From: Bacilli bacterium
GTDB lineage: Bacteria > Bacillota_I > Bacilli_A > RF39 > UBA660
DNA: 52,475 nucleotides
Reading direction: 5' to 3'
Assembly: GCA_035392025.1 (NCBI GenBank)
Contig: DAOPMC010000003.1
Span: 1 to 52,475, forward strand
The position numbers and the translations under genes were made by a program. Below the pieces are notes generated by a model. It worked only from the letters and a program-made list of their open reading frames with translations. It was not told where the DNA came from and made no database searches. Position 1 is the stretch's first letter; every line of letters starts with the position of its first letter. Positions 34-41,585 of the stretch are shown here, piece by piece.

Positions 34-621
34 TCAAAAGTTATTGACATCTTTTGAACCAAGTAATAATTTAATTGTACCTTTTTCATAATATCTAGTT
101 TTAGCCTCTGGAGATTGTTCTAATACTATGTCTCCTTTGCCTTCATAAATTATTTCAAAATTATATAAGTACTTTTTTGCTTCTTTTAAACTCATGCCTA
201 TAACATTTGGAACATCATAATATTTTTTATCAGTCCATTCATATTTTTTTTCTGTCCAACCATCCTGTTTTTCTATATCTAGTGCATCTATTATATCAAG
301 AAGTAATCTTCTCGCAACTGGAGTTGTTGTATAACTTGATAAAAGAGCTGTGTTATGTGGATTATCAATTGCAACATATAATACTGCTTCTGGATCGTTT
401 GAGGGCACTATCGCCATAAAACTCATTATATAATTACCAACTAAATATCTACCATTTTGGGCTTTTTGAGCAGTCCCAGTTTTACCTCCTATTCGATATC
501 CTTCAATATATGTTGCTCTGCCACCACCATTAGTAACAACACTCTCTAAGGCCATTTTCATTATTTCGCTAGTATTTTCACTAATAGTTTTTCTGACTAG
601 ATTAGTTTCATTTTTAAACAC
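34..621 (-). CDS. spoVD: 3' fragment of a split class B penicillin-binding protein (SpoVD-like): KTG box plus a single PASTA domain
   Basis: Contains GGKTGTAQ (KTG box) and one C-terminal PASTA-like domain. The frame stays open upstream of the GTG at 621 to a TAA at 724-726 (..LTPIQQVTAVSAIVNGGYLYTPYIV..). That sequence continues the GQGVSVTPI end of ORF 40329..41585. Confidence 0.8.
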   Translation of the reverse strand: MFKNETNLVRKTISENTSEIMKMALESVVTNGGGRATYIEGYRIGGKTGTAQKAQNGRYLVGNYIMSFMAIVPSNDPEAVLYVAIDNPHNTALLSSYTTTPVARRLLLDIIDALDIEKQDGWTEKKYEWTDKKYYDVPNVIGMSLKEAKKYLYNFEIIYEGKGDIVLEQSPEAKTRYYEKGTIKLLLGSKDVNNF

Positions 622-691
622 AACTTCATTACCATTTTTAATTTCTTTAACAATATATGGAGTATAAAGATATCCCCCATTTACAATTGCA

Positions 692-2419
692 CTAACTGCT
701 GTAACTTGTTGTATGGGAGTCAGTTAAATGAAAGTCAGAGCCTTTAAAATTGCTTGTTCCATACAAAGTTTCTCCTGTTTTAAACAAGATTTCCAATCTT
801 GTTTTATTATTGTATTTTTCGCTTTCACCCTCATCTAACGGGACAGGATAGACCGCAATCTTTTCAACTAAACTATTGAAAAGTTCATTGAAACAAACAT
901 TATCATCTTTTGCTTTACCTAATTGTTCCTTCAAATAATTAATTCTTTCATCAATAGATTTTTCATTATCTTTCTTTACTTTCAGAATGGTAATTTGACT
1001 ATCAAAATATTTTAACTCTCCATTTAGTTCCTCATTCTTTTTGGAAAAATCAGAATTTGATATATTTCCTTCCATTACAAGTTCTAATAATTTATCTTTC
1101 TTCTCGTTAATAACCTTGCATTTCTTTTCTAAATTTAATATCTCATCATCAACATTTACTGTATTTAGATACTCCTCATATTCTTTTAGTAAACCATTAA
1201 TTACTACTGATTTATCTGATAAAATTCTTTTAAACAATTCATTAAATACCTTATCTAATTCATATTCAAATAGTTTTGAATTATTACAAGCTCTCTTTCC
1301 GCCTTTTCTATAAACTTTGCACTCCCATGCAGGATTATCTTTTCTACTCCCTGCACTACTTCTATGGTATGTAGTCCCATGTATTCCACAGAATATTTTT
1401 CCACTGTATGTGTATCTATTTTGAAATATTGTTGTATCTTCTGTACGATCCTTGAAACCTTTTTTTACTTTTTCTAATTTTCTATTAGCTTTTTCCCATA
1501 TTTCTTCTGTTATTATCGCTGGTACATTTTCTTCATCTTTATACATCTTCCAATTTTCCTCCTCTAACCTTTTCTTCAACTTAGTTCTATAATCAATAAT
1601 TTGTGATTTATTACCACAATAATATCCTTTATACTTTGGATTCATTATAATTCTTTGAATTATTGTTATATCTATTGGATTTCCTCTTGTATTTTTATAT
1701 CCTCTTTTTGCCATTAGTCTTGCTAATGATGACAAAGATATAGAAGTATTAGCATAATTATCATATATAAATTTAACCATTTCAGCCTGTTTCTCATCAA
1801 CAACTAATTTCCCGTTATCTTTTACATACCCATATATATTGGAACATCCTAACACTACACCTTTATCTATTGATCTTTTCATACCAAAATGTACTCTTTC
1901 TGATAATTTTCGCACCTCATCTTGAGCTACACTTGCCATAATGGTCAAACGTAGTTCACTATCTGGGAAAATTGTGTTAATATTATCATTTAAAAAATAA
2001 ACCCCCACACCACTTTGAAGTAATTCTTGTGTGTACTTAATGCTATCTAAAGTATTTCTTGAAAATCTCGATATTTCTTTTGTTAATATTAAATCAAATT
2101 TACTCTGTCTAGCATCATTAATCATTTTAAGAAAATCTTCTCTTTTATTAACAGATGTACCACTTATTCCTTCATCAATATATCCGTTAATAAATTCCCA
2201 ATTTGAAACTTTCTCAATATATTCTTTAAAATAAGAGATTTGTGCAGCTAAAGAGTGTAATTGCTCGTCTTTATCTGTTGAAACTCTAGCATAAAAAGTT
2301 ACTTTTAATTTCAAATCTTGAATTGGTACTCCTGCTATTATTTTATTTCTTACAGTATATAAATCCAAACAATCACCCCCTTGCTTTGCTATATTTGTGA
2401 ATATCATACTGCTATTCAA
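692..2419 (-). CDS. large serine recombinase (integrase of the ICE)
   Basis: N-terminal resolvase catalytic domain (FYARVSTDKDEQ..SL..Q), recombinase domain, Cys-rich zinc-ribbon region (CGIHG..C..C) and a long coiled-coil tail. A better-supported start may be the TTG at 2368, preceded by AAGGGGGTGA. The stop at 692-694 lies in host-derived DNA. Confidence 0.9.
   Translation of the reverse strand: MNSSMIFTNIAKQGGDCLDLYTVRNKIIAGVPIQDLKLKVTFYARVSTDKDEQLHSLAAQISYFKEYIEKVSNWEFINGYIDEGISGTSVNKREDFLKMINDARQSKFDLILTKEISRFSRNTLDSIKYTQELLQSGVGVYFLNDNINTIFPDSELRLTIMASVAQDEVRKLSERVHFGMKRSIDKGVVLGCSNIYGYVKDNGKLVVDEKQAEMVKFIYDNYANTSISLSSLARLMAKRGYKNTRGNPIDITIIQRIIMNPKYKGYYCGNKSQIIDYRTKLKKRLEEENWKMYKDEENVPAIITEEIWEKANRKLEKVKKGFKDRTEDTTIFQNRYTYSGKIFCGIHGTTYHRSSAGSRKDNPAWECKVYRKGGKRACNNSKLFEYELDKVFNELFKRILSDKSVVINGLLKEYEEYLNTVNVDDEILNLEKKCKVINEKKDKLLELVMEGNISNSDFSKKNEELNGELKYFDSQITILKVKKDNEKSIDERINYLKEQLGKAKDDNVCFNELFNSLVEKIAVYPVPLDEGESEKYNNKTRLEILFKTGETLYGTSNFKGSDFHLTDSHTTSYSS
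700..726. other. attL: left host/ICE junction
   Basis: The minus-strand PBP frame ends at the stop at 724-726. 709-720 (ttgttgtatggg, followed by agt) aligns codon for codon with 40341-40352 at the other end, and both encode T-P-I. The crossover must lie inside this stretch; the exact dinucleotide is not resolvable by eye. Confidence 0.6.
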
Positions 2420-2444
2420 GCAATATCTTCAAAGCTCTTAAAAT

Positions 2445-2458
2445 GGCTAAAAATAGCC
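2445..2458 (-). other. small hairpin (GGCTA-tttt-TAGCC) between the repeated promoter-like element and the recombinase start
   Basis: 5-bp stem read directly, followed on the minus strand by ATTTT. Possible weak attenuator. Confidence 0.3.
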
Positions 2459-2477
2459 TTTAATCGCATCTTCTAAT

Positions 2478-40136: not shown

Positions 40137-40180
40137 ATCTCTTTTATTCAATTTAACCGTAAATTACTTACATACAATAA

Positions 40181-40220
40181 AAAACAATAAGTCTTAACAA
40201 AAAGATTTATTGTTTTTTTG
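40181..40220 (+). terminator. Rho-independent terminator of the XRE gene
   Basis: AAACAATAAGTCTT-loop-AAGATTTATTGTTT (one G-U pair) followed by T7. Confidence 0.75.
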
Positions 40221-40328
40221 TTTTAGTACCTTAAGATACCAAGAAGTAGCAATTACAATAAAAGGTAACATTGATATTTGGAATAAACTTATGGTTTTCA
40301 TGTCTTATGAATGTAACAGTTTCATTTA

Positions 40329-40358
40329 TCAGACACCTAGATGAATTGGCGTGACACT
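40329..40358. other. attR: right ICE/host junction
   Basis: The PBP frame GQGVSVTPI runs into 4 element-encoded codons (HLGV) and a TGA at 40329-40331. 40341-40352 aligns with 709-720. Confidence 0.6.
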
Positions 40359-41585
40359 AACTCCCTGCCCAAATGCTGTCGTTGCTGTTTCCAACAATCC
40401 AATATCATTTACATCAAATAATATTCCCTTTTGTTCTCCCGATACATCGATACCCGTCTTTTCACCAAAACCAAACATATCAATATATTTAAATAGTCTT
40501 TCTTTACCAAGTTTTAAACCCATTGATACAAATCCCGGATTACATGAGTTTTCAAATACTTGTAAAAATGTTTGATGCCCATGGCCTTTTGTTTTCCAGC
40601 ATTTAAGTTTTGCTCCTTCTACTGTAACTGAACCACTATCATAAAAAGTATCTTTTTCTAAATTAATAAGTCCTTCTTCTACAACAGCTGCCGTCGTTAT
40701 TATTTTAAATGTTGAGCCTGGCTCATAAGCATACCAAACTGGTAGATTTCTATTTAATGTTTCTTCACTAAAATTTTGATAATTATTAGGATCAAATGAA
40801 GGTCTGCTACTCATCCCATATATTTCTCCTGTTTTAGGATTCATAACAATTGCCAAAGCATTGTCAGGTGTAAACATATCCATAACATTATCAAGTTCTC
40901 TTTCTAAAGATGTTTGAATATCATAATCAATCGTTAAGTATATATCATTCCCAGCCTCAGGAGATTCATATGATTCACTAATTTTTAATTTATTTCCCTT
41001 TGCATCTGCATAATATTTTATAGCACCAGATAAACCTAATAAATAATCATCATATTTAAGTTCAAGTCCACTTAGACCTTGATTATCTATTCCAACATAT
41101 CCTAAAACATGCGAAAGAGATTTTCCATTAGGATAATATCTCTTTGATTCTCTTACTAAATGTACACCATCTAAATCATGACTACTAATTTCATCTGCAA
41201 TTTCAAAACTTAAATTTCTTCCTTCTGGATGAACTTTTTCTAGAGATGAAATCTTTGTTACGTGTTCATATATATCATTAAATTCTACTTTTAATATATC
41301 AGAAAGTATTTTAGCGGTTTCTTCTTTGTTCTTTACTTGATTGGGAACTATGTATAAAGATACTGTTGTAACATTTGTTGCAAGTATTTCCCCATTTCTA
41401 TCATAAATATTTCCCCTATCTGCCGATATTGGTAATTCTCTACTCCACAAGTCATCTGCTAGAAGTTCTAGTTTTTGGTAAGAAATAGTTTCAATAAAAA
41501 TAATTCTAAGTGCTATTATAATTAGTAATAGTATTATCAATAATAATATAATTTTTATTCTTTTATTTATTAATTTTTGAAACAC
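40329..41585 (-). CDS. spoVD: 5' fragment of the split class B PBP (SpoVD-like): TM anchor, dimerisation domain, SxxK and SxN motifs
   Basis: N-terminal TM helix, PBP-dimer region, STFK (SxxK) and SCN (SxN). Lacks the KTG box, which lies in ORF 34..621. Confidence 0.85.
   Translation of the reverse strand: MFQKLINKRIKIILLLIILLLIIIALRIIFIETISYQKLELLADDLWSRELPISADRGNIYDRNGEILATNVTTVSLYIVPNQVKNKEETAKILSDILKVEFNDIYEHVTKISSLEKVHPEGRNLSFEIADEISSHDLDGVHLVRESKRYYPNGKSLSHVLGYVGIDNQGLSGLELKYDDYLLGLSGAIKYYADAKGNKLKISESYESPEAGNDIYLTIDYDIQTSLERELDNVMDMFTPDNALAIVMNPKTGEIYGMSSRPSFDPNNYQNFSEETLNRNLPVWYAYEPGSTFKIITTAAVVEEGLINLEKDTFYDSGSVTVEGAKLKCWKTKGHGHQTFLQVFENSCNPGFVSMGLKLGKERLFKYIDMFGFGEKTGIDVSGEQKGILFDVNDIGLLETATTAFGQGVSVTPIHLGV

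Follow-up and report, generated by a model that had tools for sequence, protein, structure and literature searches.

The DNA analysed in our study (hereafter the window, meaning the whole stretch of 52,475 bp, to which all coordinates refer) is from contig DAOPMC010000003.1 of assembly GCA_035392025.1, assigned to a Bacilli bacterium (RF39; UBA660), and has a GC content of 27.4%. It carries a gene for a class B penicillin-binding protein (PBP) of the SpoVD type which is present in two parts, and between these parts lies an integrative conjugative element (ICE) with a large serine recombinase gene at its edge. Both PBP halves, the recombinase gene and the genes of the host dcw cluster are found on the minus strand. 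The 5' part (40342..41585) encodes the transmembrane anchor, the PBP dimer domain and the SxxK (STFK) and SxN (SCN) motifs, while the 3' part (34..709) reads ..QQVTAVSAIVNGG.. and supplies the KTG motif (GGKTGTAQ) and one PASTA domain. The open reading frame (ORF) called at 40329..41585 has 418 codons, as the host part is extended to 40329 by four element codons (HLGV) and a stop, and its product ends in ..TTAFGQGVSVTPI followed by HLGV. The frame that holds ORF 34..621 stays open as far as 723 and reads LTPIQQVTAVSAIVNGG..GGKTGTAQ.. / LTPIQQVTAVSAIVNGGYLY.., after which comes the single PASTA domain. Neither half has all three catalytic motifs; as the split parts SxxK and SxN from KTG, the gene is inactive for as long as the element is present. 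Joining of the two halves in silico gives an in-frame gene of 1920 nt encoding 639 amino acids. The initial annotation had described the locus as two halves of one PBP gene, whose union restores a conserved PBP block, and both parts of this description were borne out by our analysis.

A protein search with the joined 639-aa sequence retrieved an uninterrupted allele (P0001) on contig L016 (GCA_964401505.1), the host DNA of which is 99.3% identical to that of the window over 11.2 kb, with 99.1% identity in the 3' half of the gene. The 5' half of the window matches residues 1-414 of this intact allele, and at the site of insertion L016 reads ..GTCACGCCAATTCA/ACAAGTTACAGC.. (here and below the slash marks the position of the split), which is exactly the predicted join at the DNA level. 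The empty attB site, which had been proposed as a check on the split, is therefore present in another strain, and it consists of the left part of attL and the right part of attR. The element is thus a presence/absence polymorphism between near-identical strains. The split and the intact conspecific alleles differ by four synonymous changes and one non-synonymous change, in addition to a difference at the C-terminal end.

The attachment sites attL (40320..40366, minus strand) and attR (688..734, minus strand) can be aligned without gaps (GTCACGCCAATTCATC for attL and CTGACTCCCATACAAC for attR). The bases flanking a shared CA differ between the two sites, and only an exchange within this CA (40342-40343 in attL, 710-711 in attR) yields the empty site of L016. 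The crossover had earlier been placed within 709-720 / 40341-40352; this location was correct and is now narrowed to the dinucleotide, which falls inside the codons for ..VTPI/QQV.. The size of the element follows as 39,632 bp, in agreement with the earlier estimate of about 39.6 kb. The element-side arm of attL, TCTAGGTGTCTGATAAATGAAA, is also present in L006 and L032, and that of attR is TTTCATTTAACTGACTCCCATA. Swapping of the arms gives an attP with an imperfect inverted repeat (TTTCATTTAACTGACTCCCATA / TCTAGGTGTCTGATAAATGAAA) having 17 matches in 22 positions and centred on the CA. The rebuilt junctions read ..CGCCAATTCAACAAGTTAC.. for attB and ..GACTCCCATACATCTAGGTG.. for attP. From these observations it is almost certain that the element has integrated into the gene and that its removal at the CA reconstitutes the gene exactly. 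Four more contigs with the insertion (L013, L014, L015 and L022) match the window at 100% identity; as probable re-assemblies of a single sample they give no independent support.

Two side observations were made in the comparison with L016. Both contigs stop 120-180 bp past the spoVD stop codon (window 1-33; L016 11909-12086), which suggests a repeat or a strain-variable region directly downstream of spoVD in both. Further, 61 codon differences between the two strains were counted over ten flanking host genes (spoVD excluded), and 33 of these (21 synonymous and 12 non-synonymous) fall in a single gene for a 367-aa host protein without family match (47232-48335), which is far more variable than its neighbours.

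Identity of the gene and recurrence of the split

The joined window protein scores 683.4 bits against TIGR02214, the SpoVD equivalog model (cutoff 688), over model positions 2-635 of 636, and the intact allele P0001 scores 684.6 bits, as compared to 320 bits for the neighbouring PBP with two PASTA domains. Five of eight orthologues pass the cutoff (698-735 bits) and three remain below it (647-685 bits). Among solved structures, the top PDB match of the joined protein is SpoVD of C. difficile with 389 bits, followed by the next PBP with 239 bits. The genomic context was also examined. The head of the host dcw cluster (41656..46053, minus strand) comprises mraZ (45583-46053), rsmH (44653-45582), ftsL/DivIC (44341-44631) and, upstream of the split gene, a 713-aa PBP with two PASTA stretches (42188-44329, minus strand). 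In B. subtilis the order is mraZ-rsmH-ftsL-pbpB-spoVD, PBP2B has two PASTA domains and SpoVD has one. The same order and PASTA counts had been claimed for the window and were found to be correct; an ORF of 180 codons without family match (41656-42198, minus strand), which the initial annotation did not mention, lies between the two PBP genes.

In related genomes the spoVD-type gene is followed by mraY and then by a SEDS protein gene, and the window ends before these. The best model for this SEDS protein is SpoVE, with 417-424 bits against a cutoff of 448.8, and FtsW is the only model whose cutoff it passes. A single C-terminal PASTA domain, a place after the two-PASTA PBP and a SpoVE-like SEDS partner in relatives together make up the context of SpoVD. 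By every sequence criterion available the joined PBP is of the SpoVD type, as had been proposed for it from its position and its single PASTA domain. In B. subtilis, SpoVD is required only for synthesis of the spore cortex.

Splitting of the spoVD-type gene is not confined to the window. Among nine related GTDB species representatives the gene is split in five, intact in three and partial in one, the last being intact across all the sites. The split in L006 is at VTPI/QQ, the same site as in the window, and in L005, L007 and L008 it is immediately after ENSCN. In L009 the gene is split twice, after GSTFK and after ENSCN (1261-6681), with the middle piece still in frame, and in L032, from a human gut metagenome, it is split after ENSCN and at VTPI/QQ (44-6302), with an in-frame middle piece of 76 codons. 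Each of these doubly split genes contains two separate recombinase elements. The inserts vary in size, from islets of 3.7, 4.2 and 4.8 kb, which come from L005, L009 and L032, through elements of more than 10 kb to the ICE of 39.6 kb described here. The 3.7-kb islet (L005 11086-14820, ENSCN site) carries ispE (TIGR00154, 207 bits) beside the small ORF and the recombinase gene. In many bacteria ispE is an essential gene of the methylerythritol phosphate (MEP) pathway, and if the islet copy is the only one in L005, a germ line that had lost the islet would not be viable. Superoxide-reductase-like and rubredoxin-type genes were found in the 4.2-kb islet, and the 4.8-kb islet has genes which, judged by sequence alone, are CYTH-like, NUDIX-like and kinase-like.

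A search with the C-terminal half gave 120 clusters of short proteins, of which 58 start at ENSCN, 38 at STFK and 8 at or near VTPI. Many of these are encoded on contigs of 100-700 kb and hence are not truncations at contig ends. In more than 20 independent split alleles, the doubly split ones included, no frameshift or internal stop was found in any fragment examined and the motifs are conserved. Across related genomes the spoVD-type gene is thus split at no fewer than three conserved sites. A 282-aa C-terminal fragment (P0328; L105-L108) occurs in identical form in at least 23 contigs from many samples and is preceded by either of two unrelated elements, one with a 608-aa recombinase and Flg_new surface proteins and the other with a 527-aa recombinase and UDG/HhH-GPD/methyltransferase cargo.

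Two further observations on these relatives are recorded here. A few C-terminal fragments (P0258, P0259, P0268, P0324 and P0351) start at about residue 403-405 (M..GQGVSVTPIQQ..) with the sequence of the third site (VTPI/QQ, hereafter site 3) intact, and a fourth insertion site may exist at ..TTAF/GQG.. In the species with the 282-aa fragment, an arginine deiminase operon lies between spoVD and mraY.

The recombinase, its family and the conjugative element

The recombinase gene (692..2419, minus strand) sits at the edge of the element beside the 3' half of the PBP gene and encodes 575 amino acids from a TTG start (it was called as 558 aa). The protein has the Resolvase, Recombinase and Zn_ribbon_recom domains of Pfam and a ..YARVSTDKDEQ.. 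motif, and with the unique CA core and the inverted repeat of attP these domains identify it as a large serine recombinase. The closest PDB entry for its catalytic domain is 3g13, a 'putative conjugative transposon recombinase', and XisF is among the NCBIfam matches. Its stop codon lies in host DNA beyond attR (window 692-720), as in all 13 loci of the site-3 clade that were checked, and on the excised circle the ORF is predicted to have 606 codons and a different tail, as against 575 in the integrated state. Plasmid matches of the recombinase are all at 33% identity or less. The best match in the phage collection, MT837325 (41% identity), was dropped, as it lies in unrelated high-GC DNA with no PBP gene.

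Directly upstream of the recombinase gene lies an ORF of 72 codons (2533..2751, minus strand). An ORF of 47-72 codons without Pfam match precedes the recombinase gene at each of the three spoVD sites and in a number of further clades, and the profile model of this small ORF also matches ORFs right upstream of the recombinases in the Dac, spoIVA and SBP-adjacent clades. Instances of the module include window 2533-2819, L023 3600-4001, L005 12844-13050 and L009 2302-2445. A terminator-like hairpin with a T-run (2800..2819, minus strand), overlapped by a sigma70-like promoter match, precedes the pair of small ORF and recombinase gene in the window, and an equivalent hairpin was found before the small ORF in those site-3 loci that were examined. 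No known RNA family was recognised when the window and four related loci were scanned with Rfam, nor when the leader preceding the small ORF was scanned at high sensitivity.

The recombinases at the three spoVD sites share 37-41% identity with each other. A metagenome scan with their alignment gave 80 loci, 64 of them with usable flanks, and a neighbour-joining tree resolved target-specific clades, in which the window enzyme branches deeply within the spoVD site-3 clade. All 13 relatives with at least 56% identity and with downstream DNA adjoin a PBP C-half starting at residue 412-419. In L104 (9783-12211), on a circular contig of 1.8 Mb, a recombinase of 58% identity, whose element has the same element-side att arm and carries AbiE and type I restriction-modification genes as cargo, is found at an attB-like secondary site beside or in an APH-family gene. 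Site specificity in this clade is therefore not absolute: 13 of the 14 members with flanks are at one position, and L104 is the exception.

Targets of the more distant relatives were called with probes and flank clustering, and representatives were checked with NCBIfam. Of the relatives with 40-48% identity, 11 adjoin spoIVA, split at ..APSIHM/IRAD.. (L042-L070, L052 and L064), and eight adjoin the N-terminal part of sigK, split after ..VAHIVKK (L076, L077, L088, L090, L098 and L100-L102); one each is next to a spoVB-like gene (L073) and a gene for a Dac-type carboxypeptidase cut at SxxK (L081). The SpoIVA assignment reached 549.8 bits (cutoff 459.9) over model positions 4-402, positions 399-492 being encoded beyond the element, and the rejoined sigK gene reached 270 bits (cutoff 252). 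The DD-carboxypeptidase was confirmed, and the SpoVB-like match in L073 remained below the cutoff. In total, 33 of the 64 loci with usable flanks are in sporulation genes. The sporulation genes targeted by this family are all expressed in the mother cell in B. subtilis.

The element itself covers 712..40341, which makes 39,630 bp of its own DNA, and one CA brings the total to 39,632 bp; its GC content is 26.8%. Its conjugation genes, all on the minus strand and assigned with Pfam, include a type IV coupling protein of the VirD4/TraG family (10160..12169), a VirB4-like conjugation ATPase (DUF87 / TraG P-loop; 17086..19620), a pilin-family protein of the type IV secretion system (21313..21591) and an M23 peptidase which is likely to be the cell-wall hydrolase of the transfer apparatus (15468..16328). 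A 451-aa protein (13291..14646, minus strand) is a candidate relaxase, with a MobA/VirD2 Relaxase match below threshold (E = 0.001; 19.8 bits against a cutoff of 24.6). A 2182-aa protein (3609..10157, minus strand) has ArdC-N-like, ResIII/SNF2 helicase and Helicase_C matches, and SSB, a T2SSE ATPase and two Cro/C1-type helix-turn-helix (HTH) regulators were also identified. One of these regulators (39879..40136, plus strand) is found at the attL end, divergent from the leftmost genes of the element and with promoter-like sites facing each other, and is likely to be the switch of the element. No phage structural genes were seen among the element genes. The conjugation set and this lack of phage structural genes identify the insert as an ICE, for which the core of the secretion system, the integration module and defined ends are all present; the earlier description of the insert as an ICE bordered by a large serine recombinase gene is thus confirmed.

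As cargo, the element carries a diversity-generating retroelement (34750..38438, minus strand) with a reverse transcriptase gene (34750-35793) and bAvd (35766-36143). Its template repeat (36405-36525) and variable repeat (36768-36888) are 121 bp long, and all 15 mismatches between them are at adenines of the template. The variable repeat forms the 3' end of a gene for a 563-aa prepilin-like protein (N_methyl; 36747-38438), so that codons 517-557 at the C-terminus are diversified. An ORF with a MutS_I domain adjoins the retroelement, and a homologous cassette was observed in the element of L007.

Proposed developmental excision and its alternatives

The large serine recombinase has exchanged strands at the CA inside the VTPI/QQV codons and so integrated the ICE into the SpoVD-type gene, and the reverse reaction between attL and attR would rebuild the reading frame seen in the element-free strain. 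In the mechanism proposed here, excision would require a recombination directionality factor, for which we infer the 72-aa ORF to be the best candidate. As the recombinase family sits almost by rule in sporulation genes, the element is most likely tolerated because cortex synthesis is the only process in which spoVD is required. The gene would be restored by excision in the mother cell, which is terminally differentiated, the germ-line copy in the forespore would keep the element, and the same single step would also feed conjugative transfer. A tolerated ICE in spoVD which is excised in the mother cell is considered as the overall best explanation and is given an even chance. The link between excision and sporulation, taken by itself, is put at even or slightly below; developmental excision is well motivated by the behaviour of the family and by the literature on the skin, SPbeta and gin elements discussed below, which would make it about a toss-up. 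A wider proposal, in which a portable module of recombinase and small ORF has radiated to at least five sporulation genes, the split spoVD gene is the common state in uncultured gut Bacilli and conjugation is mechanistically coupled to sporulation, is regarded as unlikely. In this proposal the module is borne in the window by the conjugative element, and its excision in the mother cell would at once allow cortex synthesis again and set free an ICE circle able to transfer, from a cell which is bound to lyse.

Several observations weigh against mother-cell excision. The window allele is 4.6 bits short of the SpoVD equivalog cutoff and thus stays outside the equivalog by that measure. Apart from the spoVD/spoVE-like pair, neither the window nor about 1 Mb of spoVD-neighbourhood loci yielded a sporulation gene; approximate probes for Spo0A, SpoIIID, SspA, SpoIVA, SpoVT and SigK had no match in any spoVD-orthologue locus, and NCBIfam annotation of the neighbours in L002 and L005 returned no sporulation genes. 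No convincing sigmaE or sigmaK promoter was detected upstream of the spoVD orthologues or of the small ORF in this AT-rich DNA (27% GC), where a recurrent upstream CATATAAT box is not distinguishable from a sigmaA -10 element. The rebuilt attP junction, searched as a degenerate 44-mer in the viral contigs of IMG/VR, gave 0 matches, and the substitutions between the window and L016 are too few to reveal selection on the split allele. Moreover, the divergence of the recombinases and that of the host PBPs are uncorrelated (Spearman 0.06), recombinases of 82-94% identity being found in hosts whose PBP C-halves are 45-79% identical, and different elements occupy one spoVD site within a single species, namely in the contigs with the 282-aa fragment. 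This indicates that the elements are horizontally mobile and have been acquired repeatedly and recently, and are not a domesticated skin; an ancient, vertically inherited skin-like element was rejected as there is no co-divergence of recombinase and host PBP. The ICE also has its own HTH switch, and excision could follow the circuitry of the ICE alone.

Regarding the host, the walled families of the uncultured Bacilli orders RF39, RFN20 and ML615J-28 are predicted to retain sporulation genes (PMC10868615). Field et al. have described an ongoing, repeated loss of sporulation in these orders and have reported spoVD as reduced or absent in RF39 (PMC10868615). If the hosts studied here belong to that order, one may speculate that split spoVD genes contribute to this reported scarcity.

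The lack of other sporulation genes in the examined host DNA, the horizontal spread of the elements with exchange at the same site and the HTH regulators of the ICE also agree with plain insertional inactivation. Here the lineage would be losing or would have lost sporulation, spoVD would be a dispensable relic and a safe harbour, its conserved motifs would make a good attB, and excision would serve transfer only, with restoration of the gene as a by-product. The repeated loss of sporulation in these Bacilli orders (PMC10868615) and the use of a secondary site in an unrelated gene by a close relative of the recombinase (L104) point in the same direction. On the other hand, an open frame and conserved motifs are kept in all the fragments of more than 20 independent split alleles, orthologues exceed the SpoVD equivalog cutoff, and mini-elements of 3.7-4.8 kb without transfer genes retain an intact recombinase gene and the small ORF. 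Half of the identifiable targets of the family are sporulation genes, which is hard to explain by the conservation of motifs alone. Insertional inactivation without a developmental role is a possible explanation, though a somewhat doubtful one.

The score slightly under the SpoVD cutoff could also mean that the PBP is a non-essential vegetative enzyme, for instance one of elongation or an accessory transpeptidase, with reversible insertion acting as an on/off switch for traits of the cell wall such as shape or the beta-lactam target profile. This would be in line with the reduced dcw clusters, with the SEDS partner passing the cutoff of FtsW and not that of SpoVE, and with a Dac-type carboxypeptidase being a further target of the family. 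However, the score of the joined protein on the SpoVD model is over twice that of the neighbouring PBP, SpoVD is the nearest solved structure by 150 bits, and a second PBP with two PASTA domains adjoins for division. In B. subtilis sigK and spoIVA have no vegetative role, which also counts against such a switch, and we consider it improbable. Hardly any weight can be given to an assembly artefact in which a chimeric contig joins the ICE to two gene halves. Metagenome assemblies can be chimeric and the four identical contigs are probably from one sample, but both junctions have the expected anatomy of attL and attR with the shared CA and the inverted repeat of attP, the same type of junction is found in many independent samples and species, and in every family member the ORF of the recombinase extends through attR.

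The presence of this recombinase family in spoIVA, spoVB-like and Dac-type genes of metagenomes offers a general rule by which such elements can be searched for. Predictions of the sporulation gene content of uncultured Bacilli may count too few of the split genes. These site-specific recombinases also come with defined attB/attP pairs.

Comparison with known systems

Two interrupted sporulation genes of B. subtilis, sigK (by skin, with the recombinase SpoIVCA) and spsM (by SPbeta, with SprA), are restored when large serine recombinases excise the interrupting elements in the mother cell. Elements with such recombinases in sigK, spsM, gerE and other genes have been found to excise in the mother cell (PMC4191935, PMC5595907, PMC5025042). 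The initial annotation had likened the window to the skin and SPbeta arrangements, and the likeness proved stronger than could be seen at that stage, since relatives of the recombinase also split sigK, spoIVA, spoVB-like and Dac-type genes and the spoVD-type gene is itself split at several sites in many related genomes. In the case of skin (SpoIVCA in B. subtilis; CD1231 with the directionality factor CD1234 in C. difficile), a recombinase encoded at the edge of the element splits a sporulation gene and its precise excision restores the frame, as in the window. The directionality factor of C. difficile has 72 amino acids (PMC5025042), the same length as the product of the small ORF of the window, and recombinases 40-45% identical to that of the window are found in sigK in metagenomic loci. 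Skin differs in its target, sigK, and in being a defective, vertically fixed prophage, whereas the window has a complete-looking and apparently recently mobile ICE in spoVD; further, skin is under mother-cell-specific control, which would be a prediction for the present element.

SPbeta in spsM (SprA/SprB) is closer in one respect, as it is an active mobile element in which one excision step by a large serine recombinase serves the life cycle and potentially the reconstitution of the gene, as may be the case here (PMC4191935, PMC5499854). It is a phage and not a conjugative element, and the dual promoters of its directionality factor gene sprB have been shown experimentally. The gin element in gerE of B. 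cereus (GirC/GirX) and the vfbin, vrin and yin elements are non-phage or degenerate serine-recombinase elements in sporulation genes and resemble the islets of L005, L009 and L032 (PMC5595907, PMC10747680); gin has no conjugation genes, in contrast to the window element with its type IV secretion system. Tn5397 with TndX and the conjugative transposons of C. difficile are ICEs which integrate by a large serine recombinase, as here. TndX-type enzymes are multi-targeting (bioRxiv 10.1101/2021.11.05.467528), whereas the clade of the window is specific for one position in one gene. In Anabaena, the nifD, fdxN/XisF and hupL elements interrupt genes which are needed only in a terminally differentiated cell, XisF being a recombinase of the large serine type, and the double interruptions in L009 and L032 recall the presence of several elements in the nif region. 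These elements differ in belonging to another phylum and another developmental programme and in being non-conjugative.

An ICE inside spoVD has been described, in that ICEBs1 used spoVD as a secondary site (Menard & Grossman 2013, PMC3715440). That insertion was a laboratory artefact of deletion of the tRNA attB, was made by a tyrosine recombinase, showed undetectable excision and was harmful to the host (PMC3715440). Interrupted sporulation genes named in the searchable literature are sigK, spsM, spoVFB, spoVR, gerE, kamA and yabG; natural insertions in spoVD, spoIVA or spoVB were not found there, and spoVD appeared only as the artificial site of ICEBs1. The window thus holds a real, skin-like arrangement in a new target gene and with a conjugative carrier. 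To the short list of programmed reconstitutions it would add the cortex transpeptidase gene spoVD, a conjugative carrier and a lineage in which the gene is commonly split. The class of mechanism is known; new are the gene that is hit, the conjugative nature of the carrier, the interruptions at several sites and twice within one gene, and the pattern across the recombinase family.

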